Origin: a virus
Lineage: Duplodnaviria > Heunggongvirae > Uroviricota > Caudoviricetes
Direction: 5' to 3' (one strand)
DNA length: 32,052 nt
IMG/VR virus record: IMGVR_UViG_2548876861_000008
The position numbers and the translations under genes were made by a program. The notes under the pieces were generated by a model that worked only from the letters and a program-made list of their open reading frames with translations, had not been told where the DNA came from and searched no databases. Shown in pieces: positions 3,238 to 24,251 of this stretch. Every line of letters starts with the position of its first letter. Position 1 is the first letter of the stretch.

Positions 3238-3509
3238 GTATTCGTATTGAAATTGGCGAACATTATGTCGTTACCAGTGACAGCTTTCAGTTTATTCTCC
3301 ACGAGAAAAAGAGAGCTGAAAGCGGTAAAAACGCCGGTCAGGAATGGCTGTCGGTGGTTGGTTATTACCCGAAATTAAGCCAGCTCGTTTCCGGCCTGAT
3401 GCATCACGATATTCTGACCGGAAGCGCAAAGTCTTTTGCTGATTTAAACGCGCAGGTTGAGCAACTCAGCAAGCGTTGTTCAGAGGCTTTTGGCTCATAT
3501 GGCCGTTAA
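3234..3509 (+). CDS. early hypothetical protein (P2 orf83 position)
   Basis: 91-aa ORF immediately upstream of gpA. Confidence 0.45.
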   Translation: MSIRIEIGEHYVVTSDSFQFILHEKKRAESGKNAGQEWLSVVGYYPKLSQLVSGLMHHDILTGSAKSFADLNAQVEQLSKRCSEAFGSYGR

Positions 3510-5775
3510 AGCCTCCGGGCGTTTTGTCCCTCCGTCAGCATTTGCCGCAGGCACCGGTAAGACGTTTACCGGTGCTTATGCATGGAACGCGCCACGCGAG
3601 GCCGTCGGGCGCGAAAGACCCCTTACACGTGACGAGATGCGTCAGGTGCAAGGTGTTTTATCCACGATTAACCGCCTGCCTTACTTTTTGCGCTCTCTGT
3701 TTACTTCACGCTATGACTACATCCGGCGCAATAAAAGCCCGGTGCACGGGTTTTATTTCCTCACATCCACTTTTCAGCGTCGTTTATGGCCGCGCATTGA
3801 GCGTGTGAATCAGCGCCATGAAATGAACACCGACGCGTCGTTACTGTTTCTGGCAGAGCGTGACCACTATGCGCGCCTGCCGGGAATGAATGACAAGGAG
3901 CTGAAAAAGTTTGCTGCCCGTATCTCATCGCAGCTTTTCATGATGTATGGGGAACTCAGCGATGCCTGGGTGGATGCGCATGGCGAAAAAGAATCGCTGT
4001 TTACGGATGAGGCGCAGGCTCACCTGTATGGTCATGTTGCTGGCGCTGCACGTGCTTTCAATATTTCCCCGCTCTACTGGAAAAAATACCGTAAAGGGCA
4101 GATGACCACGAGGCAGGCATATTCTGCCATTGCCCGTCTGTTTAACGATGAGTGGTGGACTCATCAGCTTAAAGGCCAGCGTATGCGCTGGCATGAGGCG
4201 TTACTGATTGCTGTCGGGGAGGTCAATAAAGACCGTTCTCCTTATGCCAGTAAACATGCCATTCGTGATGTGCGTGCACGCCGCCAGGCAAATCTGGAAT
4301 TTCTTAAATCGTGTGACCTCGAAAACAGGGAAACCGGCGAGCGCATCGACCTTATCAGTAAGGTGATGGGCAGTATTTCTAATCCTGAAATTCGCCGGAT
4401 GGAGCTGATGAACACCATCGCCGGTATTGAGCGTTACGCCGCCGCAGAGGGTGATGTGGGGATGTTTATCACGCTGACCACGCCGTCAAAGTATCACCCG
4501 ACACGTCAGGTCGGAAAAGGAGAAAGTAAAACCGTCCAGCTTAATCACGGCTGGAACGATGAGGCATTTAATCCAAAGGATGCGCAGCGTTATCTCTGCC
4601 GTATCTGGAGCCTGATGCGCACGGCATTCAAGGATAATGATTTACAGGTCTACGGTTTGCGAGTCGTCGAGCCACACCACGACGGAACGCCGCACTGGCA
4701 TATGATGCTTTTTTGTAATCCACGCCAGCGTAACCAGATTATTGAAATCATGCGTCGCTACGCGCTCAAAGAGGATGGCGACGAAAGAGGAGCTGCGCGA
4801 AACCGTTTTCAGGCAAAACACCTTAACCGGGGCGGTGCTGCGGGATATATCGCGAAATACATTTCAAAAAACATCGACGGCTATGCACTGGATGGTCAGC
4901 TCGATAACGATACCGGCAGGCCGCTGAAAGACACTGCCGCGGCTGTTACCGCATGGGCGTCAACGTGGCGCATTCCGCAATTTAAAACTGTTGGCCTGCC
5001 GACAATGGGGGCTTACCGTGAACTACGCAAATTACCTCGCGGCGTCAGCATTGCTGATGAGTTTGACGAACGCGTCGAGGCTGCACGCGCTGCCGCAGAC
5101 AGTGGCGATTTTGCGCTGTATATCAGCGCGCAGGGTGGGGCAAATGTCCCGCGCGATTGTCAGACTGTCAGGGTCGCCCGTAGTCCGTCGGATGAAGTTA
5201 ACGAGTACGAGGAAGAAGTCGAGAGAGTGGTCGGCATTTACGCGCCGCATCTCGGCGCGCGTCATATTCATATCACCAGAACGACGGACTGGCGCATTGT
5301 TCCGAAAGTGCCGGTCGTTGAGCCTTTGACTGTAAAAAGCGGCATCGCCGCGCCTCGGAGTCCTGTCAATAACTGTGGAAAGCTCACCGGTGGTGATACT
5401 TCGTTACCGGCTCCCACACCTTCTGAGCACGCCGCAGCAGTGCTTAATCTGGTTGATGACGGTGTTATCGAATGGAATGACCCGGAGGTCGTGAGGGCGC
5501 TCAGGGGCGCATTAAAACACGGACTGAGAACACCAAATCGTCAGCAAAGAGCCGGAAGCCCGTTAAAACCGCATGAAATAGCGCCATCGGCCAGAATGAC
5601 CCGGTCGGAACGAATGCAAATTACCCGTATCCGCGTTGACCTTGCTCAGAACGGTATCAGACCGCAGCGATGGGAGCTTGAGGCGCTGGCGCGTGGCGCG
5701 ACCGTAAATTATGACGGGAAAAAATTCACGTATCCGGTCGCTAATGAGTGGTCGGTTTTTTCAGTTAAACAATAA
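3499..5775 (+). CDS. A: rolling-circle replication initiator gpA (nickase)
   Basis: Long ORF; HWHMMLF motif and AAGYIAKYISKN tyrosine region typical of the phage A / phiX174-A initiator superfamily; start at 3499 (MAVKASG) gives about 758 aa, close to recalled P2 A; upstream in-frame ATG at 3457 is also possible. Confidence 0.85.
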   Translation: MAVKASGRFVPPSAFAAGTGKTFTGAYAWNAPREAVGRERPLTRDEMRQVQGVLSTINRLPYFLRSLFTSRYDYIRRNKSPVHGFYFLTSTFQRRLWPRIERVNQRHEMNTDASLLFLAERDHYARLPGMNDKELKKFAARISSQLFMMYGELSDAWVDAHGEKESLFTDEAQAHLYGHVAGAARAFNISPLYWKKYRKGQMTTRQAYSAIARLFNDEWWTHQLKGQRMRWHEALLIAVGEVNKDRSPYASKHAIRDVRARRQANLEFLKSCDLENRETGERIDLISKVMGSISNPEIRRMELMNTIAGIERYAAAEGDVGMFITLTTPSKYHPTRQVGKGESKTVQLNHGWNDEAFNPKDAQRYLCRIWSLMRTAFKDNDLQVYGLRVVEPHHDGTPHWHMMLFCNPRQRNQIIEIMRRYALKEDGDERGAARNRFQAKHLNRGGAAGYIAKYISKNIDGYALDGQLDNDTGRPLKDTAAAVTAWASTWRIPQFKTVGLPTMGAYRELRKLPRGVSIADEFDERVEAARAAADSGDFALYISAQGGANVPRDCQTVRVARSPSDEVNEYEEEVERVVGIYAPHLGARHIHITRTTDWRIVPKVPVVEPLTVKSGIAAPRSPVNNCGKLTGGDTSLPAPTPSEHAAAVLNLVDDGVIEWNDPEVVRALRGALKHGLRTPNRQQRAGSPLKPHEIAPSARMTRSERMQITRIRVDLAQNGIRPQRWELEALARGATVNYDGKKFTYPVANEWSVFSVKQ

Positions 5776-5945
5776 TGACTACTACTGCAGTGTTGTGGGA
5801 ATGTTATAGTGTTTGTGGAATTTTTCTATGAAAAACAATGAATTAATCTGTTTTTCATATTGAGCTAATTTTTTATGGCCACAGTTGTTAAAAAGTGAGA
5901 ACATAATCTTGTTCAAAACCTGCTTCTATATACGGAGGCTTTCGC

Positions 5946-5951
5946 TATAAT
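5946..5951 (+). promoter_or_regulatory. TATAAT -10-like hexamer upstream of the methyltransferase gene; strong Shine-Dalgarno AGGAGG at 5965..5970
   Basis: Read from sequence; no convincing -35 found. Confidence 0.3.
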
Positions 5952-5976
5952 ACGCGGTCGGTTTTAGGAGGGGATA

Positions 5977-6921
5977 ATGCCAACAGTAGTTTCACTTTTT
6001 TCTGGATGCGGTGGTTCCGATGCGGGGGTTTTGAGAGCCGGCTTTGATGTGCTTATGGCCAACGATATCTTGCCGTATGCGCGCGATGTTTATATTGCCA
6101 ATCATCCAGAAACTGATTACATATTAGGCAATATTGCTGATGTAACTACTTTTCCTAAATCTGATTTGCTGGTAGGTTGTTATCCATGTCAGGGATTCAG
6201 CCAGGGTGGTGCGCGTAAAGCCGATCGAAAAATTAATACTCTTTATTTAGAGTTTGCTAGAGCTTTAAACAATATAAAGCCTAAAGCTTTTATAGTAGAA
6301 AACGTGTCTGGTATGGTTAGAAAAAATTTTGAGCATTTGTTATCTGACCAGATCAGGGTTTTTACTGAAGCAGGTTATACTGTTTCCGCAAAAGTTTTAA
6401 ATGCGGCTGAATATGGAGTAGCGCAGGAAAGAAAAAGAATATTTATCGTAGGAATCCGTAATGATTTCAAAGTTAAGTACGAGTTCCCTCAGCCAACTCA
6501 TGGGCCAGCAACTGGCGTCAACTATGTTACTATTAAAGATGCTATAGGGCATTTACCTGAATGGCCAGAAGGTGAATTTTATGATATGGGATTCCATTGG
6601 TATTATATGTCTCGCAATCGTCGCCAGGATTGGGATCAAATTTCAAAGACAATAGTTGCTAATGCAAGGCATATGCCGTTGCATCCTGTCAGTCCTCCGA
6701 TGGAGAAAGTAAGAACTGATGAATGGAGATTTGTTGAGGATCGGAGAGCTCGCAGATTCAGTTTTCGAGAGGCAGCACTATTACAAGGGTTTGAGGATCT
6801 AGTGTTTCCAGAAACAAATGCTGCAAGTCTTGGCATGAAATACACGGTGGTTGGTAATGCAGTGCCTCCGCCGCTTTTTGAAGCTGTAACGAAGGCATTG
6901 CCAATAGAATTATGGGATTGA
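5977..6921 (+). CDS. DNA (cytosine-5)-methyltransferase (Dcm-like C5-MTase)
   Basis: 314 aa; motif I FSGCGG, motif IV PCQGFS, motif VI ENV (FIVENVSGM), QERKR, C-terminal GNAVPPP motif X. Confidence 0.85.
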   Translation: MPTVVSLFSGCGGSDAGVLRAGFDVLMANDILPYARDVYIANHPETDYILGNIADVTTFPKSDLLVGCYPCQGFSQGGARKADRKINTLYLEFARALNNIKPKAFIVENVSGMVRKNFEHLLSDQIRVFTEAGYTVSAKVLNAAEYGVAQERKRIFIVGIRNDFKVKYEFPQPTHGPATGVNYVTIKDAIGHLPEWPEGEFYDMGFHWYYMSRNRRQDWDQISKTIVANARHMPLHPVSPPMEKVRTDEWRFVEDRRARRFSFREAALLQGFEDLVFPETNAASLGMKYTVVGNAVPPPLFEAVTKALPIELWD

Positions 6922-6928
6922 TAAGCTA

Positions 6929-7924
6929 TTAAGGCTCTGGATTTAATGTATAAAGCTCTTCCTCAAATTCGCGAAACCAATCAGAGGTAGTTATCGCTTC
7001 CCATTGGTTTGCCTTATCAAGTAGATATATGATTCTCAACCTATCTAATAATAATACCCCAGCGGTTGCGTGTGTGCTTACCCATTCGCCATTTGCTTCC
7101 CGATAGAAAACAGGCGTGAACATTGTTGATGGATGCTGGAACGCAATTTGGAAATAGGTGGTCAGTTTTAACACGTTAGCCTCTAATGTTTTGCTTGGCC
7201 ACCCTGTTTCTTGTGCACCACATTGACCAAGAATTCCATAGTTGCTAGTTTGACCATCAGGAAATTCCACTGTAGCAATTAGGTCAAACCCGGCATCACC
7301 AGATGTGGGAGCTCTATTTATTTCCCTTGTGTTTAAACTACAAACTCCAAGATCTTTTCCTAAAGTTTGTAGAGCTGTCCGAAGATTTGTTCCATAATAA
7401 TTTTGCCTATCATCGGAGTTAGCATCAAAAATTCTTACGGTGCCATGTGCAGGTAAGAGAGAAATCATTGCTACTTTACATACTCTGGCAAAGCTCTTTG
7501 CCCAACGTTGTGCTGCTCCTTTAATCGACTTAAAGGATCTAAGTCTAGAGCAGCAAAGAAGAAAAACATATATTCGTTGTTGTTGGTTTAGATTTTCTTT
7601 AATAATTATCTCATCACCTGAAATTATAAATGGATATATTTTGCCAAGAGCACTTTCTCTATATTCGAGTTGTGTCCAAACATCTTCGAGTTGCTCTTCA
7701 AAACGATCATTTCTCTCAGCGTCTCCATTAATTTCTTCTTCAGAATTACATTCTTCATCAATTTCTTCAACGCTTGTTATGCCGAATTTTCTTACTGAAT
7801 CTAAATCATTTTTATGTAGTGAGTTACGTCCGGTATAATTAATTACCGTGAGTAACTCGGCTAAATCTGCAAACAAATGAGGAGAGTTGGGATGCATAAC
7901 TCCTACTTCAAAAGTCATCATCAC
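6929..7924 (-). CDS. hypothetical protein, second gene of cargo operon; function unknown
   Basis: 331-aa ORF on minus strand, 17-bp overlap with upstream gene; AT-rich codon usage unlike the phage backbone; no motif I can assign. Confidence 0.6.
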   Translation of the reverse strand: MMMTFEVGVMHPNSPHLFADLAELLTVINYTGRNSLHKNDLDSVRKFGITSVEEIDEECNSEEEINGDAERNDRFEEQLEDVWTQLEYRESALGKIYPFIISGDEIIIKENLNQQQRIYVFLLCCSRLRSFKSIKGAAQRWAKSFARVCKVAMISLLPAHGTVRIFDANSDDRQNYYGTNLRTALQTLGKDLGVCSLNTREINRAPTSGDAGFDLIATVEFPDGQTSNYGILGQCGAQETGWPSKTLEANVLKLTTYFQIAFQHPSTMFTPVFYREANGEWVSTHATAGVLLLDRLRIIYLLDKANQWEAITTSDWFREFEEELYTLNPEP

Positions 7925-9068
7925 CTCTGCTATTTTTCTCTGCTATTTCAGAACCTATAAGCTTAATATGTTTATTGATTCTTCGTGCTACTTCATGGGC
8001 CTGTCTATCATACTCTACCGTGGCAACCATGCCTGCTGCATCTATCAAAGCTGCTTCAACTTGATAAAGTAACTGGAGAAAGTCCTTAGTAATATCAGAT
8101 GTCAATTGATAGGCAACTGCGAGTGGAGCCCCCATTCGGAATTGCTCCAATGCCTTAGGGCTACTTACAACAGCAGCTAGTTCTCTTAAATTACGTGATT
8201 CTCCTACACGAGTTTTTTTATCCTCGCCTTTTTTATATAACCATTCAGTTAGTTCTTTTATTTCTTTGTTCTTTAAACTCTTAGAATTGATGATAGGATG
8301 ACTTGGTATTGTGTCTCCATCGTCTTCGATTGAAACTCCGACAAACTGGCCTAACCGCTCATCAGCAAGTGCTGTTGATAATACTGAAAATTTAATCGTT
8401 TCTTCATCTAGCTTTTCAATACCATAAAAATCATTTTTTTTAATGATTTCATACACCGCTAAAGCGTCTAGGTTACGCTTGATATGATCCCTACGACTGC
8501 CAATAGCTCTGGCAACCTCATAGTAGCGTAGCATTGGATCCAGATTTGCATTGGTATAATCAAAAAGCTGTTTAATATATCGAGCTTTTGATAAGGGTTC
8601 CCATTGTTTGACACCAGTAATATGTCTGAAACCAAGGTACGGAAGAATCTCTTCTCTTGTTTGGCGCTCAATGACAGGAACACGATCGACCGTATGTTTT
8701 GCATTTGATGCAATTTCTCGTAGTCGAGCACTTGGATTTTCACATAGTGTCGGATCGCGTAATAATTTGACCGCGGATAGGCGACGGTTTCCTTCAACTA
8801 CAATGTACTTCCCCGGCGCTCCACTATCAGGAATGACAATCAATGGTTCTCCAGGGAAAAAACCATTTTCCGCAATAGCACTCATTAGGTCTTCGATAGA
8901 TGTTGAGGTTGCTATGTAGTTAATCATTCCCAATTGGTCACGAGACACGCCTTCAGGAAGTCTTGGGTTTTCTGTGTCAAGTTCCAAATCATCTAGCGGA
9001 ACATAAAGTATTTCTGAATCAGCAATCATCTGGATCTCCGTTGAACATGTCCACGAGAAGGAGCACAA
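7908..9068 (-). CDS. ParB/Srx-fold (ParB N-terminal-like) domain protein, first gene of cargo operon
   Basis: 386-aa ORF; N-terminal region KYIVVEGNRRLSAVKLL resembles the ParB GxxRxxA box; long alpha-helical-looking C-terminal region. Confidence 0.6.
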   Translation of the reverse strand: MCSFSWTCSTEIQMIADSEILYVPLDDLELDTENPRLPEGVSRDQLGMINYIATSTSIEDLMSAIAENGFFPGEPLIVIPDSGAPGKYIVVEGNRRLSAVKLLRDPTLCENPSARLREIASNAKHTVDRVPVIERQTREEILPYLGFRHITGVKQWEPLSKARYIKQLFDYTNANLDPMLRYYEVARAIGSRRDHIKRNLDALAVYEIIKKNDFYGIEKLDEETIKFSVLSTALADERLGQFVGVSIEDDGDTIPSHPIINSKSLKNKEIKELTEWLYKKGEDKKTRVGESRNLRELAAVVSSPKALEQFRMGAPLAVAYQLTSDITKDFLQLLYQVEAALIDAAGMVATVEYDRQAHEVARRINKHIKLIGSEIAEKNSRGDDDF

Positions 9069-9255
9069 AGTTATTTCATAACATGCAATATACTCATTCT
9101 GTAGCCATAAATGAATTATTCATGATGTAAGATTCGCGTTGATGTGCGTGAATTCGCAAGTAATTATACAGCAAGGTTTGATTGGGTATCGTCAGCACCA
9201 GTGCGGTTCCAACGTACTCATGCAACTGCATTAAAACCGCCCCATGAAGCGGGCG

Positions 9256-9274
9256 GGCGAGGCGGGGAAAGCAC
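9256..9274. other. cos cohesive-end site (19-nt ggcgaggcggggaaagcac)
   Basis: Exact match to the 19-nt cohesive end I recall for P2; lies just downstream of portal gene Q as in P2. Confidence 0.6.
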
Positions 9275-9415
9275 TGCGCGCTGGCGGTGGTGCTGATTTT
9301 ATTTTTTCAGCGTCTGAGCGCGTCGTGATGGCGTTTAGATTGTTAGCCGGGGCGTTGGTGTGTCTGCGGGCTGTTTTGTGCGGTGGTGAGCGTGTGAGAG
9401 CGTGATGGCGGGTTG

Positions 9416-9438
9416 TAAAAAAGCCGCCCGCAGGCGGC
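9416..9438 (-). terminator. Rho-independent terminator after Q (minus strand)
   Basis: GC stem gccgcc/ggcggc (9423..9438) with a run of A on the plus strand (T-run on minus) at 9416..9422, immediately 3' of Q stop. Confidence 0.5.
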
Positions 9439-9443
9439 GATGT

Positions 9444-10478
9444 TCAGCCGTTGTCAGTGTCCAGTGAGTAGTTTTTAAAGCGGATGACCTCCTGACCGAG
9501 CCAGCCGTTTATCTCGCGGATCCTGTCCTGTAACGGGATAAGCTCATTGCGGACAAAGACCTTTGCCACTTTCTCAATATCGCCCAGCGACCCGACGTTT
9601 TCCGGCTTGCCACCCATCAACTGAAAGGGGATGCGGTGCGCGTCAAGCAGGTCAGCGGCGCTGGCTTTTTTGATATTAAAAAAATCGTCCTTCGTTGCCA
9701 CTTCACTGAGCGGGATAATTTTAATACCGTCGGCTTTTCCCTGTGGGGCGTAGAGAAACAGGTTTTTAAAGTTGTTGCGGCCTTTCGACTTCACCATGTT
9801 TTCGCGAAGCATTTCGATATCGTTGCGGTCCTGCACGGCATCGGTGACGTACATGATGTATCCGGCATGAGCGCCGTTTTCGTAATACTTGCGGCGGAAC
9901 AGCGTGGCCGACTCATTCAGCCAGGCAGAGTTAAGGGCGCTGAGATATTCCGGCAGGCCGTACAGCTCCTGATTAATATCCGGCTCCAGCAGGTGAAACA
10001 CGGAGCCGGGTGCGAAGGCTGTCGGCTCGTTGAAGGACGGCACCCACCAGTAAACATCCTCCTCCACGCCACGACGGGTATATTTGGCCGGTGAGGTTTC
10101 CAGTCTGATTACCTTACCGGTGGTGCTGTAACGCTTTTCCAGAAACGCATTACCGAACACCAGAAAATCCAGCACAAAGCGGCTGAAATCCTGCTGGGAA
10201 AGCCACGGATGCGGGATAAATGTCGAGGCCAGAATATTACGTTTGACGTAAATCGGTGAGCTGTGATGCACGGCAGCACGCAGGCTTTTTGCCAGACCGG
10301 TAAAGCTGACCGGTGGCTCATACCATCTGCCGTTACTGATGCACTCGACGTAATCCAGAATGTCACGGCGGTCGAGTACCGGCACCGGCTCGCCAAAGGT
10401 GAATGCCTCCATTTTCGGGGCGCTGGCAGTCATTGTTTTCACCGCTGGCTGCGGTGTTTTCCCTTTTTTCTTACTCAT
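9444..10478 (-). CDS. Q: portal protein
   Basis: 344 aa, same length and position as P2 gpQ; stop/start coupled with P. Confidence 0.9.
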   Translation of the reverse strand: MSKKKGKTPQPAVKTMTASAPKMEAFTFGEPVPVLDRRDILDYVECISNGRWYEPPVSFTGLAKSLRAAVHHSSPIYVKRNILASTFIPHPWLSQQDFSRFVLDFLVFGNAFLEKRYSTTGKVIRLETSPAKYTRRGVEEDVYWWVPSFNEPTAFAPGSVFHLLEPDINQELYGLPEYLSALNSAWLNESATLFRRKYYENGAHAGYIMYVTDAVQDRNDIEMLRENMVKSKGRNNFKNLFLYAPQGKADGIKIIPLSEVATKDDFFNIKKASAADLLDAHRIPFQLMGGKPENVGSLGDIEKVAKVFVRNELIPLQDRIREINGWLGQEVIRFKNYSLDTDNG

Positions 10479-20583: not shown

Positions 20584-21187
20584 TTCGCGACTGCTGCCGA
20601 CCGGCTCATCACCGCTTGAAGTCGCTGCCGCAAAAGCCTGTGCGGAAATTGAAAAAACGCCGGTCAGTATTCGTGAGCTGTGGAACCCGGACACCTGTCC
20701 GGCAAATCTGCTGCCGTGGCTGGCGTGGTCATTTTCGGTTGACCGCTGGGATGATAAGTGGCCGGAAGCGACAAAACGCGCTGTTATCCGCGATGCGTAT
20801 TTCATTCACTGCCATAAGGGCACTATAGGCGCAATCCGGCGTGTGGTGGAGCCGCTCGGCTATCTGATTGAGGTGAGGGAGTGGTGGCAGCTCAACGAGG
20901 AGCCGGGGACGTTCCGCATCGTTGTTGGCGTGCTTGAGCAGGGTATTACCGAGGAAATGTATCAGGAGCTGGAGCGCCTCGTTGCTGATGCAAAACCGGC
21001 AAGCCGCCATCTGACGGGACTGGCTATCAGTTTAAGTACAACCGGCAACATTTTTGCCGGTGCGGGATGCTATCACGGTGACGCTCTGACGGTTTATCCC
21101 TACACCCCGGAGGCCATTATTGTCGGAGGGGATTATTTCCCGGCCTCGGCCATTCATTTAATTGATAACCTGAGAGTAAACGCATGA
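20576..21187 (+). CDS. I: baseplate/tail protein I
   Basis: 203-aa ORF between J and H; translationally coupled. Confidence 0.8.
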   Translation: MSDSRLLPTGSSPLEVAAAKACAEIEKTPVSIRELWNPDTCPANLLPWLAWSFSVDRWDDKWPEATKRAVIRDAYFIHCHKGTIGAIRRVVEPLGYLIEVREWWQLNEEPGTFRIVVGVLEQGITEEMYQELERLVADAKPASRHLTGLAISLSTTGNIFAGAGCYHGDALTVYPYTPEAIIVGGDYFPASAIHLIDNLRVNA

Positions 21188-22383
21188 CAGTGAAATACTA
21201 CGCCATTCTGACTAATCAGGGCGCAGCACGGCTGGCTAACGCGACGATGCTCGGCAGTAAGCTGAATCTGACGCAAATGGCCGTTGGTGATGCGAATGGT
21301 GTCTTGCCGACACCAGACCCGGCACAGACAAAACTGATTAACCAGAAACGCATCGCGCCGCTGAATCTTCTGAGTGTTGACCCGAACAACCAGAGCCAGA
21401 TTATTGCGGAGCAAATCATCCCTGAGAACGAGGGCGGATTCTGGATCCGTGAGATTGGGCTTTATGATGATGAAGGCGTACTCATTGCGGTGGCGAACTG
21501 CCCGGAAACGTACAAACCGCAGTTGCAGGAAGGCAGTGGTCGTACCCAGACTATCCGCATGATTCTGGTTGTCACGAATACCGAAGCTATCACGCTGAAA
21601 ATCGACCCGTCGGTGGTACTGGCGACCCGTAAATACGTGGATGATGAAGTCCTGGAATTAAAGCTGTATGTGGATGACCAGATGAGAAACCACATTGCCG
21701 CACAGGATCCTCATACCCAGTATGCGCAGAAACATAATCCGACATTTACCGGAGAACCAAAAGCGCCGACGCCTGCCGCAGGAAATAACACCACGCGGAT
21801 TGCGACCACTGAGTTTGTTCAGGCCGCTATTACCGCTCTGATTAACGGTGCGCCAGCCACGCTGGACACACTGAAAGAAATTGCCGCAGCCATTAACAAT
21901 GACCCGAAATTCAGTACCACCATTAACAATGCGCTGTCAGGTAAGCAGCCACTGGATGAGACGCTGACTCATTTGAGTGGAAAGGATGTTGCCGGTCTTC
22001 TCGCATACCTTGGTTTGGGAGAAGCGGCAAAACGGAATGTAGGAACAGGGGAAAATCAGATACCGGACATGACCTCTTTTGCCAGTGGTGATGGATGGAT
22101 GAAATTACCCAACGGGAAAATCCTGCAATATGGTCGTGGTGCGATTACGCCGACATTATCGACGCAAACAATGAGAATTACATTCAGCATCCCTTTTCCT
22201 AAAAAAGTGGACTGCGCCATGCTTACCCATTCTGGTGATGGTGGTGCGCCTTTAGGCGCTGGACGGGGATTCGTGATGACTGCAGAAGGTCCAACACTAA
22301 CCGGTTTTAATTCCGCTTACAGAACTGCATCAACCAGCTCCACAGTATCGATGAATTACAGTTGGTGGGCTGTTGGTGAGTAA
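21184..22383 (+). CDS. H: tail fibre protein H (currently expressed variable C-terminus)
   Basis: 399 aa; N-terminus has the conserved P2-H-like AVANCPETYKPQLQEGSGR region; 3' part lies inside the invertible segment. Confidence 0.85.
   Translation: MTVKYYAILTNQGAARLANATMLGSKLNLTQMAVGDANGVLPTPDPAQTKLINQKRIAPLNLLSVDPNNQSQIIAEQIIPENEGGFWIREIGLYDDEGVLIAVANCPETYKPQLQEGSGRTQTIRMILVVTNTEAITLKIDPSVVLATRKYVDDEVLELKLYVDDQMRNHIAAQDPHTQYAQKHNPTFTGEPKAPTPAAGNNTTRIATTEFVQAAITALINGAPATLDTLKEIAAAINNDPKFSTTINNALSGKQPLDETLTHLSGKDVAGLLAYLGLGEAAKRNVGTGENQIPDMTSFASGDGWMKLPNGKILQYGRGAITPTLSTQTMRITFSIPFPKKVDCAMLTHSGDGGAPLGAGRGFVMTAEGPTLTGFNSAYRTASTSSTVSMNYSWWAVGE
22010..22043. repeat. Left 34-bp inverted repeat / crossover site of the invertible tail-fibre segment (ttggtttgggagaagcggcaaaacggaatgtagg)
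   Basis: Exact reverse-complement copy at 23569..23602, verified base by base. Confidence 0.75.
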
Positions 22384-22394
22384 TTTTATTCAGG

Positions 22395-22847
22395 GTGATT
22401 TATATGAACGAATATGTTTATAGCGCAAGGCATAATGCTTTTTTCCCTGTGGATATGATTGATAAATATAAATCAGAGGGATGGGATTTATCAGACGCAA
22501 AGGAAGTAAATCAAAATATTATCAGTGAGTTTATGGCTGAACCGCCACAAGGAAAAATCCGTATTGCCGGAGATGATGGGCTGCCTGCGTGGGCAGATAT
22601 TCCTCCACCCACGCATGAAGAGCTTATTGAAATTACTGAATCAGAAAGACAGCTACTAATTAACCAGGCTAACGAATACATGAACAGCAAGCAATGGCCT
22701 GGCAAAGCAGCTATTGGTCGTCTGAAAGGTGAGGAACTGGCGCAATATAATTTGTGGCTGGATTACCTGGACGCACTGGAACTGGTGGGTACCTCCAGTG
22801 CTCCAGATATTGAATGGCCTACACCTCCGGTAACTCAGGCCAGCTAA
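22395..22847 (+). CDS. G: tail fibre assembly protein (active-orientation copy)
   Basis: 150-aa ORF directly after H; C-terminus (DIEWPTPP) parallels the convergent minus-strand copy. Confidence 0.75.
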   Translation: MIYMNEYVYSARHNAFFPVDMIDKYKSEGWDLSDAKEVNQNIISEFMAEPPQGKIRIAGDDGLPAWADIPPPTHEELIEITESERQLLINQANEYMNSKQWPGKAAIGRLKGEELAQYNLWLDYLDALELVGTSSAPDIEWPTPPVTQAS

Positions 22848-23244
22848 TCTCAGGAGCCGTCGAAGTGTCGACGGCTTTTACTTCTTTTTTGTAGTCCATC
22901 CAGGCAGATAGTTTTTCTTTATCTGTACTGCTAATATCACCAAGCATTAATTCCACTCGCCAGTCAGCTGTGACATTATCGGCATGAGCAAGTAACTGCA
23001 TTCGCTGATTTTCCGCACGTGCGACATAATCAATCGCCGGGGATTTTAGTACCGGTAAACCATTTTCATCTGACGTGATTAATTTACCCCCTTCCTGCTG
23101 TCCGGCAATTAATTCATTGTATAAGTCTGTACTTATCTCAACAATGTCAGCAGGCATGTCGCTGTTTATACCATCAAAGAAAAAACCATTAGTCGATTTT
23201 GAGAAATAAATCATAGATATACCTATACACCGATTGCTACCCAA
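22819..23244 (-). CDS. alternative tail fibre assembly protein (inverted-orientation copy)
   Basis: 141-aa minus-strand ORF convergent with G and overlapping it by about 29 bp; C-terminus (EISWPELPEV) similar to G. Confidence 0.7.
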   Translation of the reverse strand: MGSNRCIGISMIYFSKSTNGFFFDGINSDMPADIVEISTDLYNELIAGQQEGGKLITSDENGLPVLKSPAIDYVARAENQRMQLLAHADNVTADWRVELMLGDISSTDKEKLSAWMDYKKEVKAVDTSTAPEISWPELPEV

Positions 23245-23602
23245 AAACAGGATCTTTCATATTTGACAATTTCTCCCTGAGATATACCGCCAACAATTAT
23301 ATAGAACTGTGATTTGCTGATATCAGAACAGTTCGCTATGCCCATTGCAGATATACCAGCCACCGACGTTGTATGTGGCACAGCCAACAGCGCAAGTGAA
23401 CGATTTGGGAATGTTACCGGGTAAGTCACCGTATAGTTTGATGCTCCACTGACAATACCCCACTGAATAATCAGACCTGAAGGAAGTTTTTGAAAACCCG
23501 TTGATGAAAGTGAACTGGCAAACGCCGCCATATCCGGAATTTGGTTTTGCCCGTTACCTACATTCCGTTTTGCCGCTTCTCCCAAACCAACGTTTATGAA
23601 AA
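23223..23602 (-). CDS. alternative tail-fibre C-terminal cassette (promoterless; would fuse to H constant region after inversion)
   Basis: Minus-strand ORF begins with the same LGLGEAAKRNVG peptide encoded by the inverted repeat and ends in a different receptor-binding-like tail. Confidence 0.6.
23569..23602. repeat. Right 34-bp inverted repeat / crossover site
   Basis: Reverse complement of 22010..22043. Confidence 0.75.
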
Positions 23603-23657
23603 TGCAGAGATAACGGGCAAGTGGCATCATCTCCGGTTTTTATTCAGGGGGATGCTC

Positions 23658-24251
23658 ATGCTTATTGGCTATGTACGCGTGTCGACAAATGACCAGAACA
23701 CGGAATTGCAGCGTAACGCGCTGAAGTGCGCAGGATGTGAGCTGATTTTTGAGGACAAAATCAGCGGCACGAAGTCCGACAGGCCGGGACTGAAAAAACT
23801 GCTCAGGACATTATCGGAGGGGGATACACTGGTAGTCTGGAAGCTGGACCGGCTGGGGCGTAGTATGCGGCATCTGGTCATTCTGGTTGAGGAACTGCGC
23901 GAACGCGGCGTTAATTTTCGCAGCCTGACAGATGCTATTGATACCAGCACGCCGATGGGGCGTTTTTTCTTTCATGTGATGGGTGCCCTGGCTGAAATGG
24001 AACGAGAGCTCATTGTCGAGCGGACTCGGGCCGGGCTGGAAGCGGCCAGAGCCAAAGGTCGTATTGGTGGCAGACGTCCTAAACTCACCGCGAGTGAGTG
24101 GGAGCAGGCCGGGCGTTTGCTGGCTGCAGGGGAGTCACGTCAACGCGTGGCACTGATTTTTGATATTGGTCTGTCCACGCTCTATAAAAAATTTCCCTCA
24201 TCAGCGACAAAGAATAAATTGTGTCATCCCTTAGCCAACCGGGACAAATAG
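23658..24251 (+). CDS. Gin/Pin/Cin/Hin-family serine DNA invertase
   Basis: MLIGYVRVSTNDQN... N-terminus with catalytic serine, C-terminal HTH; immediately adjacent to right inverted repeat as gin is to the Mu G segment. Confidence 0.85.
   Translation: MLIGYVRVSTNDQNTELQRNALKCAGCELIFEDKISGTKSDRPGLKKLLRTLSEGDTLVVWKLDRLGRSMRHLVILVEELRERGVNFRSLTDAIDTSTPMGRFFFHVMGALAEMERELIVERTRAGLEAARAKGRIGGRRPKLTASEWEQAGRLLAAGESRQRVALIFDIGLSTLYKKFPSSATKNKLCHPLANRDK

Follow-up and report, generated by a model that had tools for sequence, protein, structure and literature searches.

A ParB-like protein coupled to a restriction-endonuclease-like partner and linked to a C5 methyltransferase in a P2 prophage hotspot

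A three-gene cassette in P2 hotspot 1

The window analysed here, the whole 32,052-nucleotide stretch of Caudoviricetes DNA, carries a three-gene cassette in P2 hotspot 1, between gene A (replication endonuclease; 3457–5775, + strand) as the left border and the portal gene Q (9444–10478, − strand) as the right border, both open reading frames assigned by RefSeq annotation. The phage accessory slot proposed in the original prediction is this interval, which is a known defence hotspot (PMC9519451). With a GC content of 37–42% compared with 52–58% in the flanks, the cassette has a foreign composition. Its leftmost gene in the window encodes a C5 cytosine DNA methyltransferase (5977–6921, + strand; Pfam DNA_methylase PF00145, 5.5e-65; TIGR00675, 1.4e-56), for which M.HaeIII is the closest solved structure (1.4e-48, full length). 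This gene converges, across a 7-bp gap, with a partner gene of 329 codons (6929–7918, − strand). The ParB-like gene follows and had been described as next to a methyltransferase: the linkage is present, but the two genes are not directly adjacent, since the partner lies between them and the methyltransferase runs towards it on the + strand.

The ParB-like gene (7908–9029, − strand) encodes 373 amino acids. The sequence KYIVVEGNRRLSAVKLL is found in the mechanically called reading frame 7908–9068 (− strand), which confirms this frame, whose 5′ limit is a TTG at 9068. That start is probably 13 codons too far upstream. We placed it at the ATG at 9029 because the RefSeq protein WP_000559725.1 (373 aa) starts there, a GGAG Shine-Dalgarno sequence lies 7 nt upstream, and homologues also begin at this position. 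A word-indexed search returned at least 1995 homologues; an exhaustive search returned 327, 1305 and 3648 clusters (50% identity) at E ≤ 1e-30, 1e-10 and 1e-3, respectively. On sequence grounds this is a real gene, and a chance reading frame is ruled out. It is the first of a two-gene operon, in which the ATG of the partner at 7918 overlaps the stop of the ParB-like gene by 11 nt; its earlier description as lead gene of a cargo operon was right about its place and missed the coupled partner.

The non-coding region upstream of the operon (9030–9255, − strand) contains the Shine-Dalgarno sequence (9036–9039), a TATAAT (9163–9168) that is a candidate promoter element by consensus match, and degenerate YGCR boxes at ~9130–9155, phased at 10 bp. 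Promoter and terminator counts in a scan of positions 5700–9500 were not above shuffled expectation. The linear end of phage HQ103 (99.9% identical) maps to position 9255, with the cos end at ~9255. An inverted-repeat scan of the cassette for a parS-like site gave three short pairs, none of them in the upstream region of the operon.

Domains of the ParB-like protein and its partner

The N-terminus of the ParB-like protein is a ParB/Srx fold with a GxxRR box, as the original prediction had stated. Its ParB/Srx-type domain (residues ~1–125; 8655–9029, − strand) contains a Box I-like DxxNPRLP at residues 18–25 and the Box II motif EGNRR at residues 79–83 (nt 8781–8795), which aligns with the GERR of H. 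pylori and Caulobacter ParB. E79, G80, N81 and R83 never vary among 83 sequences of 32–55% identity, and R82 reaches at least 90% conservation. Profile searches returned PF02195 (ParB_N) at 12.9 bits, below the gathering cut-off of 26.3, and TIGR00180 at 32.8 bits, below its cut-off of 58.45; we classify the protein, by sequence, as a divergent member of the ParB/Srx superfamily. A precomputed PF02195 match is present in many of its homologues. The proposed kinship with DndB/DGQHR-type proteins did not hold up: Pfam searches gave no match to the DndB or GmrSD_N/DUF262 families at E ≤ 1, and we rejected membership in the DndB/DGQHR/DUF262 group on this result and on the motif, which reads EGNRR and not DGQHR or DGQQR. 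The protein is closer to true ParB than to DndB because it also has a ParB-type helix-turn-helix.

Directly after the N-terminal domain lies the family signature PYLGFRHITGVKQWEPLSKARY (residues 130–151; 8577–8642, − strand), in which G133, H136, G139, W143 and K148 are invariant and R135 is nearly so in 83 diverse sequences. According to hhalign, it is also present in a canonical PD-lambda-5A protein; pLDDT is low at residues 135–139. From a manual alignment, we infer that PYLGFRHITGVKQWEPLSKARY sits at the position of ParB Box III (ENxxR), with R135-H136 replacing E-N; so aligned, this position reads RHxxG. Box III E-N-x-x-R is not conserved, and therefore CTP binding cannot be assumed. The C-terminal ~250 residues, for which no nameable feature had been reported, contain (i) a ParB-type helix-turn-helix at residues ~165–198 (...EVARAIGSRRDHIKRNLDALAVY...; 8436–8537, − strand), (ii) a conserved middle region with W263 and GESRNLR, and (iii) a C-terminal helical hairpin (residues 312–367; 7929–8096, − strand) with AF2 helices at 312–334 and 342–367. 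Beyond the hairpin lies an acidic tail with a terminal Phe (DDDF), which is kept within the close subfamily; hairpin and tail may possibly serve dimerisation or partner binding.

More than 25 PADLOC models match the ParB-like protein, among them PD-Lambda-5_A (6.6e-29; residues 22–295 against profile positions 7–277 of 440) and PDC-M38A (1.3e-20). Alignment by hhalign to the canonical PD-lambda-5A of Marinobacter phage AS1 covers residues 6–196 with 99.5% probability, and these profile comparisons show the N-terminal ~195 residues to be homologous to PD-lambda-5 protein A. The PD-lambda-5 system carries the annotation ‘ParB/HEPN, methyltransferase’ and has been validated by experiment as a broad-range defence (Vassallo et al. 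2022, PMC9519451), with anti-phage activity shown for the ECOR7 system (PMC9519451). The matches to defence models make a role as sensor or in a nuclease complex, in line with the sensor or nuclease favoured from the outset, much more likely than partition. Consistent with this, no ParA is annotated in a near-identical prophage, and the LG(R/K)GL ParA-binding motif is absent from the N-terminus as read from the sequence.

We consider it highly improbable that the protein truly works as a ParB in partition or chromosome organisation, or that it helps against restriction by directing the methyltransferase onto phage DNA. The overall layout of N-terminal domain, helix-turn-helix and helical C-terminus is ParB-like, and ParB–methyltransferase fusions are common in prophages, where an anti-defence role has been suggested (PMC12704722). 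However, P2-like phages integrate, the near-identical prophage has no annotated ParA, Box III is non-canonical, the TIGR00180 score stays below its cut-off, the tightest partner is the nuclease-like protein rather than the methyltransferase, and the homology is to a validated defence protein.

The partner comprises an N-terminal winged-helix-like region (nt ~7589–7918, − strand) and a restriction-endonuclease-like (REase-like) core (nt ~7019–7516, − strand). The REase-like fold is assigned with modest scores, the modification-dependent enzymes MspJI and AspBHI being among the best structural matches. The partner is a possible member of the PD-(D/E)xK nuclease superfamily, whose core is alpha-beta-beta-beta-alpha-beta with D...(D/E/Q)xK as catalytic residues. 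D208, D212, Q232, D292, R293 and R295 are invariant and K243 is 99% conserved; D212 precedes beta-2 and Q232 lies in beta-3, as expected for the acidic strand positions of REase-like cores, and the canonical (D/E)xK lysine is missing. No PADLOC model matches the partner, and comparison of its profile with PDB sequences gave chance coiled-coil matches only. An identity as Mrr_cat was rejected (6% hhalign probability to an Mrr_cat protein; no Pfam match). The partner sequence GDAGFD...GQCG resembles GDGGIDG...QxK of Mrr, as a resemblance only.

The partner is more likely to be the nuclease than the ParB-like protein. A reversed assignment, in which the ParB-like protein itself cleaves DNA, as is reported for ParB/Srx-fold DNases such as Osa and RK2 ParB, and the partner provides target recognition or regulation, is quite unlikely. 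It would account for the invariant H136, R135 and K148 in a flexible loop beside the Box II arginines and for the missing (D/E)xK lysine of the partner, and nicking ParB/Srx proteins have precedent (cited in PMC12839542). Against it stand the REase-like fold of the partner, with invariant acidic residues at the expected strands and the conserved K243, and the finding that related ParB-like modules are joined to varied effectors (HEPN in PD-lambda-5A, HNH/DUF1524 in GmrSD), which fits a switch or sensor.

Gene linkage and a proposed mechanism

Both genes were found on one contig in 123 loci, where the partner (~330 aa) directly follows the ParB-like gene on the same strand and usually overlaps it (median 14–17 nt, counted from the longest ORF start); 105 of these loci have a C5 methyltransferase gene as a neighbour. 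A ParB-seeded search of viral contigs yielded 80 loci, of which 79 carry both genes and 77 have a C5 methyltransferase next to them, and a partner-seeded search of genomes yielded 46 loci, 43 with both genes and 28 with the adjacent methyltransferase. The loci span Proteobacteria, Acidobacteriota, Chloroflexota, Bacteroidota, Actinomycetota and Campylobacterota. Many P2-like prophages carry the pair, including those of 48 complete E. coli genomes, and the same module is present in phages Wphi (orf98-orf96-mth), vB_EcoM-12474III and Pseudomonas phage D14A. In pairwise comparisons, the identity of the ParB-like protein correlates with that of the partner (Spearman 0.79). The ParB-like gene is shown to be translationally coupled to, and co-evolving with, its partner.

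The methyltransferase behaves differently. Its median identity is 66%, compared with 36% for the ParB-like protein and 29% for the partner, and its divergence is weakly correlated with theirs (0.25–0.37). Its orientation and position vary, being convergent, upstream or downstream of the pair; this variable placement is the pattern of restriction–modification (R-M) systems, linkage without fixed co-transcription. Every linked methyltransferase detected with the C5 query used in this search is of the C5 class, even distant ones (E 1e-16 to 1e-30), and Pfam scans of the neighbours in the remaining loci found no methyltransferase of another class.

Tight coupling to the partner also bears on whether the ParB-like protein chiefly controls transcription of the cassette, in the manner of KorB or the C-proteins of R-M systems, timing expression of the nuclease against methylation once the cassette has entered a new cell. 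The ParB-type helix-turn-helix would suit such a role, and 24 of 104 cassettes have phased TGCA-N6-TGCA boxes in their upstream region, compared with 3.2% of background windows. These boxes, however, lie near cos, and most loci beyond the P2-like prophages lack them. Moreover, a protein of 373 residues with ~30 invariant or near-invariant positions outside the helix-turn-helix goes far beyond the needs of a controller, and the gene is on the same transcript just ahead of the nuclease, with which it co-evolves. A mainly regulatory function is accordingly improbable.

We give a probability of about 50% to the reading that the ParB-like protein is a DNA-binding, probably nucleotide-gated subunit of a two-subunit nuclease within a three-gene, R-M-like anti-phage cassette carried as cargo by P2-like prophages. 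The protein would bind DNA via its helix-turn-helix, and the Box II arginines together with the invariant RH...K...W loop would bind nucleotide or otherwise switch its state. In the switched state it would recruit or license the partner nuclease, which would then cut DNA lacking the mark of the linked C5 methyltransferase, while resident DNA would be shielded by that mark. The ParB module would represent a common sensor or switch with a variable effector, which is a fused HEPN-like tail in PD-lambda-5A and a separate REase-like protein here.

A minority of loci departs from this R-M logic. Six to eight genomic loci, mostly from Methylococcales, carry the pair without a methyltransferase within the available flanks and keep all invariant partner residues intact. 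Such pairs count against R-M because this arrangement would not be expected with a classical restriction enzyme that is constitutively active. R-M could stand despite them if the methyltransferase were encoded elsewhere or the nuclease were gated. The same loci speak for a methylation-independent or infection-triggered nuclease (Abi-like or Type IV-like), held off by the ParB-like switch until a phage cue, with the methyltransferase as a separable companion that, for example, protects against a second activity. The different tempo of the methyltransferase and its weak divergence correlation with the pair point in this direction, as do MspJI and AspBHI among the structural matches of the partner. 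PD-lambda-5, too, is strongest against T-even phages, and its authors use the term ‘RM+Abi’ (PMC9519451) rather than simple R-M, since the cytosines of T-even phages are modified and yet protection is best there. Against this alternative, 77 of 79 viral and 28 of 43 genomic loci with both genes have a C5 methyltransferase next to the pair, and the exclusive detection of C5 enzymes, albeit with a C5 query, argues for a functional tie to 5-methylcytosine; for a Type IV-like enzyme in particular, cutting 5mC DNA could not be reconciled with a C5 methyltransferase residing in the same cell. We regard this alternative as possible, if doubtful.

The reading as a nucleotide-gated nuclease subunit can be taken further, to an unlikely but specific form: a new R-M class in which a nucleotide-gated ParB clamp would load via its helix-turn-helix at unmethylated sites, 5-methylcytosine blocking the loading, and would slide or spread to deliver or activate the REase-fold nuclease. 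If so, the ParB switch would take the place of the helicase/translocase motors of Type I and Type III systems and of the McrBC GTPases, and PD-lambda-5 (with its HEPN effector) and PDC-M38 would be sister systems that use this switch as well.

Nucleotide switches with a ParB fold are being discovered in contexts far removed from chromosome segregation. PD-lambda-5 is a validated system of broad range; the cassette keeps its ParB module, with the effector split off as a REase-like protein and a C5 methyltransferase as the paired enzyme, and therefore offers a cleaner system for what the ParB module senses and how the nuclease is controlled. Current tools probably miss it as a complete system, because the partner is not represented in PADLOC and the best 25 of the 63 PADLOC matches of the methyltransferase include no PD-Lambda-5_B model. 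If confirmed, the cassette would add one more defence system to the catalogue of the P2 hotspot and could provide a first example of restriction driven by a ParB-type switch.

Comparison with known systems

Phage Wphi carries this three-gene module as orf98-orf96-mth, likewise in P2 hotspot 1, where mth is the convergent C5 methylase gene; its ParB-like protein is 34% and its partner 25% identical (E 5e-24) to those described here. The PHROG families phrog_3694 and phrog_3984 match over full length, and both are labelled ‘unknown function’. For the Wphi genes and these two families, searches returned sequence records and no functional study. Literature searches on the module or its accession numbers gave nothing relevant and no biochemical or genetic test of the cassette; the main text of Rousset et al. 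2022 mentions neither ParB nor methyltransferase. A Pectobacteriaceae Tn-seq paper was rejected as a source, its subject being other than the cassette.

Compared with the canonical CTP clamps ParB, KorB and Noc, the ParB-like protein has no annotated ParA and no ParA-binding motif, scores below the ParB_N and TIGR00180 cut-offs, and, in the manual alignment, carries RHxxG.K.W in place of the Box III ENxxR. ParB-fold proteins can bind CTP, ATP or GTP, with a specificity not predictable from sequence or AlphaFold3 (PMC12704722). The Type IV systems GmrSD, BrxU and SspE likewise couple a ParB/Srx-fold module to a nuclease module for defence, namely a ParB-like DUF262 NTPase to an HNH/DUF1524 nuclease. 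GmrS and GmrD can be separate proteins, and GmrSD-type systems are sometimes two polypeptides and sometimes prophage-encoded (PMC12373910, PMC12839542). In contrast to these and to DndB, the protein described here has no DUF262/GmrSD_N/DndB match at E ≤ 1, its box is EGNRR and not DGQQR, and it has a ParB-type helix-turn-helix; the partner is REase-like rather than His-Me/HNH. Type IV systems also lack a methyltransferase of their own, whereas the cassette has one.

With PD-lambda-5 the cassette shares homology that takes in the ParB domain (including EGNRR), the RH...W motif and the first part of the helix-turn-helix, as well as linkage to a DNA methyltransferase and the status of prophage cargo, canonical PD-lambda-5 pairs being present in a Vibrio phage of the Peduoviridae (P2-related) and in Marinobacter phage AS1. 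The differences concern effector and methyltransferase. Canonical PD-lambda-5 A proteins have 430–590 residues and weak C-terminal HEPN/DUF4145 similarity, whereas the 373-residue protein lacks the HEPN tail, and its only Rx4H sequence (RRINKH) is not conserved; the alignment to a canonical PD-lambda-5A stops at ~196, while the best PADLOC model reaches residue 295. In the cassette, the ParB-like gene and the methyltransferase are separated by an additional gene, which encodes the REase-like protein. PD-lambda-5 B is a D12-class adenine methyltransferase, co-directional in a two-gene operon, and canonical examples match PD-Lambda-5_B at 1e-103 to 1e-118; the enzyme of the cassette is a C5-cytosine methyltransferase and mostly convergent. 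The cassette is related to PD-lambda-5, yet distinct from it.

Gene boundaries and position in the P2 hotspot

The window is a P2-like prophage. The ORF at 7908-9068 (-), which contains KYIVVEGNRRLSAVKLL, is present in the sequence as originally predicted; the ATG at 9029 is the more likely start, because the RefSeq product, a 373-aa "ParB N-terminal domain-containing protein", and the homologues begin there and because GGAG lies 7 nt upstream. This ParB-like gene (7908-9029, -), a partner gene and a C5 cytosine methyltransferase gene form a cassette in the interval bounded by P2 replication gene A (3457-5775) on one side and portal gene Q (9444-10478) on the other, a hotspot that carries tin and old in P2 and has yielded numerous defence systems (PMC9519451). 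GC content is 37-42% in the cargo versus 52-58% in the flanks. The 3.8-kb region around the ParB-like gene matches prophages of 48 of 5,426 complete E. coli genomes, and likewise Yersinia phage HQ103, at 99.7-99.9% identity. A linear end of the HQ103 genome (99.9% identical) maps to window position ~9255, which places the phage cos site between the cassette and gene Q; two GC-rich terminator-like hairpins lie at this predicted cos region (9237-9256 and 9423-9438, both -).

Upstream of the ParB-like gene, 10-bp-phased TGCA-N6-TGCA(-N6-TGCA) boxes occur in 24 of 104 distinct cassette upstream regions (for example 192-225, 230-263 and 143-176 of cassette loci L070, L113 and L122) versus 3.2% of background windows, with a degenerate version in the window at ~9130-9155 (-), TGCGAATTCACGCACATCAACGCG. 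They are nearly confined to P2-like prophages and span cassettes whose ParB-like proteins are just ~33% identical to that of the window; they could represent an operator for the ParB helix-turn-helix or a piece of the nearby cos/packaging region. Elsewhere, window 21184-24251 is an invertible tail-fibre host-range switch. Its + strand encodes a tail-fibre gene (21184-22383) and a serine invertase (Resolvase + HTH_7 type, 23541-24251), and its - strand an alternative C-terminus for the fibre (23223-23630); two tail-fibre assembly genes face opposite ways (22395-22847, +; 22819-23244, -).

Fold and conserved motifs of the ParB-like protein

Sequence profiles by themselves point weakly to ParB, Pfam ParB_N (E 0.12) and TIGR00180 (E 5.4e-8) both falling under cut-off. 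The predicted ParB-type fold is borne out by the match list, which includes KorB (10.3), PadC (9.0), pNOB8 ParB-N (8.5, 189 residues aligned), the serine kinase SerK (8.5), SbnI (8.2), Sulfiredoxin (8.2) and Spo0J (7.1, 152 residues aligned), and by a profile of 83 diverse family members (32-55% identity), in which EGNRRLaA aligns with AGERRWRA of Caulobacter ParB. A comparison with DndB, also part of the original prediction, is not supported, as Pfam gave no DndB/DUF262 family match at E <= 1. In the 83 sequences, P22, I52, E61, E79, G80, N81, R83, G133, H136, G139, W143 and K148 are invariant and D18, N21, R23, P25, R82, R135 and S278 nearly so. By manual alignment, R135-H136 appears to occupy the E-N position of canonical ParB Box III (ENxxR), so that CTP use cannot be assumed; ParB-fold proteins bind CTP, ATP or GTP, and sequence does not predict which (PMC12704722).

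The C-terminal part, in which no feature could originally be named, can now be described. A weaker alignment from the same profile pairs "revAkkiGsrsdyvkrlLtalal" with the ParB helix-turn-helix "ENIAQTIGKSRSHVANTMRLLAL", and the protein is therefore ParB-like past its N-terminal domain; numerous helix-turn-helix domains, the SopB DNA-binding domain among them, stand further down the match list. That the protein acts purely as a transcriptional controller seems unlikely. There follow a conserved middle region (W263, GESRNLR), a helical hairpin (residues 312-367) and, in the close subfamily, an acidic tail ending in Phe ([DE][DE][DE]xF; DDDF in the window). The DDDF codons (7908-7922) overlap the partner start codon, and the tail is reminiscent of the SSB C-terminal tip. 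The sole Rx4H instance of the ParB-like protein, RRINKH, is not conserved, and no HEPN-like feature was seen in it. We consider it improbable that the ParB-like protein is itself the nuclease. The family comprises 327 clusters (50% identity) at E <= 1e-30, with lengths of ~350-410 aa in nearly all of the best 150 matches; PHROGs labels both this protein and the partner "unknown function".

A conserved cassette with a predicted nuclease and a methyltransferase

The partner gene (6929-7918, -; 329 aa), a key element missed by the original prediction, is translationally coupled to the ParB-like gene, starting 11 nt ahead of its stop with its own Shine-Dalgarno sequence, GAGG. Pfam, PADLOC and NCBIfam profiles gave no match to it. 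The predicted model (pLDDT 81.6) has two parts, a winged-helix-like N-terminus and an REase-like core. Among 106 non-identical homologues (19-99% identity), D18, E21, R87, D208, D212, Q232, C233, K243, D292, R293 and R295 are invariant or nearly so. In the model, D212 lies just before a beta-strand and Q232 within the next, an arrangement resembling D...(E/Q)xK nucleases; glycine takes the "K" position, with the conserved K243 coming after it in a loop modelled at low confidence.

The methyltransferase (5977-6921, +; PF00145, 5.5e-65) converges on the partner across a 7-bp gap. M.HaeIII is its closest solved structure (full-length alignment, 1.4e-48) and the Druantia DruM model its best PADLOC match (1.1e-113). 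These matches, together with high conservation, hint at a common, possibly GGCC-like specificity of the cassette enzymes.

Two independent searches agree on the cassette as a conserved unit. Seeded with the partner, 185,579 species genomes yielded 46 loci in six phyla, 43 with both genes and 28 with an adjacent C5 methyltransferase, which was not found at 15 (6 with flanks of at least 1.5 kb on both sides). Seeded with the ParB-like protein, IMG/VR viral contigs yielded 80 loci, 79 with both genes and 77 with an adjacent C5 methyltransferase (70 convergent); the two at which it was not found are short-flanked. At every locus whose contig holds both genes, the partner directly follows the ParB-like gene in the same direction, usually with an overlap, and in the genome set the methyltransferase is convergent, upstream or downstream. 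All methyltransferases detected with the window's C5 enzyme as query are C5, and Pfam scans of neighbours at the remaining loci revealed no other class. The cassette also occurs in phage Wphi (orf98-orf96-mth), vB_EcoM-12474III and Pseudomonas phage D14A. Yersinia phage L-413C retains, in the same hotspot, only a truncated 330-aa ParB-like remnant (L050, 207-1199; 62% identity over residues 9-303) with neither partner nor methyltransferase, and its copy is therefore a decayed cassette.

The ParB-like protein and partner co-diverge (Spearman 0.79, pairwise identities), whereas methyltransferase divergence correlates weakly with either (0.25-0.37), its median pairwise identity being 66% versus 36% (ParB-like) and 29% (partner). 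Intact pairs with no methyltransferase in the available flanks occur in genomes, mostly of Methylococcales, at six to eight loci (L003, L008, L011, L015, L016, L017, L035, L046), and keep every invariant partner residue. They sit between housekeeping genes (aconitase/GDSL lipase, NadA/GMP synthase, HisF/Uma2, citrate synthase) or beside other restriction genes, the L046 pair adjoining GmrSD and Mrr genes and the L003 pair a Type I S subunit gene. These pairs and the different methyltransferase tempo keep alive a less probable reading, an Abi- or sensor-type system gated by infection. We favor, with a probability of about one half, a restriction-modification-like defence system, in which the ParB-like protein would be the DNA-binding, nucleotide-gated subunit, recruiting or licensing the partner nuclease, presumably in a complex, and the C5 methyltransferase would label resident DNA as self against a methylation-sensitive nuclease. 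The cassette is of moderate interest, which would become high should the ParB module prove to be a nucleotide switch driving restriction.

Relation to PD-lambda-5 and PDC-M38

PD-lambda-5 is a validated two-gene ECOR7 system, annotated "ParB/HEPN, methyltransferase", with broad protection that affects T-even phages most strongly (Vassallo et al. 2022, PMC9519451). The ParB-like protein matches PADLOC PD-Lambda-5_A models, the best at 6.6e-29 over residues 22-295. Canonical PD-lambda-5 is present in Marinobacter phage AS1 and in Vibrio phage ValB1MD-2, with full-length matches to the A and B models, and hhalign relates the ParB-like family to the AS1 A protein at 99.5% probability over residues 6-196 only, the RH...W motif included. 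The ParB module is therefore common to both systems. This homology and the hotspot position support the non-partition, defence-type role originally proposed, and a partition or anti-restriction role is very improbable.

PDC-M38A (PDLC04607, 715 aa, a PADLOC candidate-system model) aligns with residues 56-352, a longer stretch than any PD-Lambda-5_A model covers, and runs on for ~370 positions that the window's partner does not match, which suggests that the ParB module is joined there to yet another effector, the third.

Our literature search found no paper describing the three-gene cassette. By sequence comparison, we place it as a variant within the PD-lambda-5 family that differs in three respects: (i) the ~500-aa PD-lambda-5 A protein has weak DUF4145/HEPN similarity close to its C-terminus, a tail that the cassette's ParB-like protein does not have; (ii) the cassette alone has a separate REase-like gene; and (iii) its methyltransferase is C5 and convergent, whereas the PD-lambda-5 B protein belongs to the D12 class of adenine methyltransferases.
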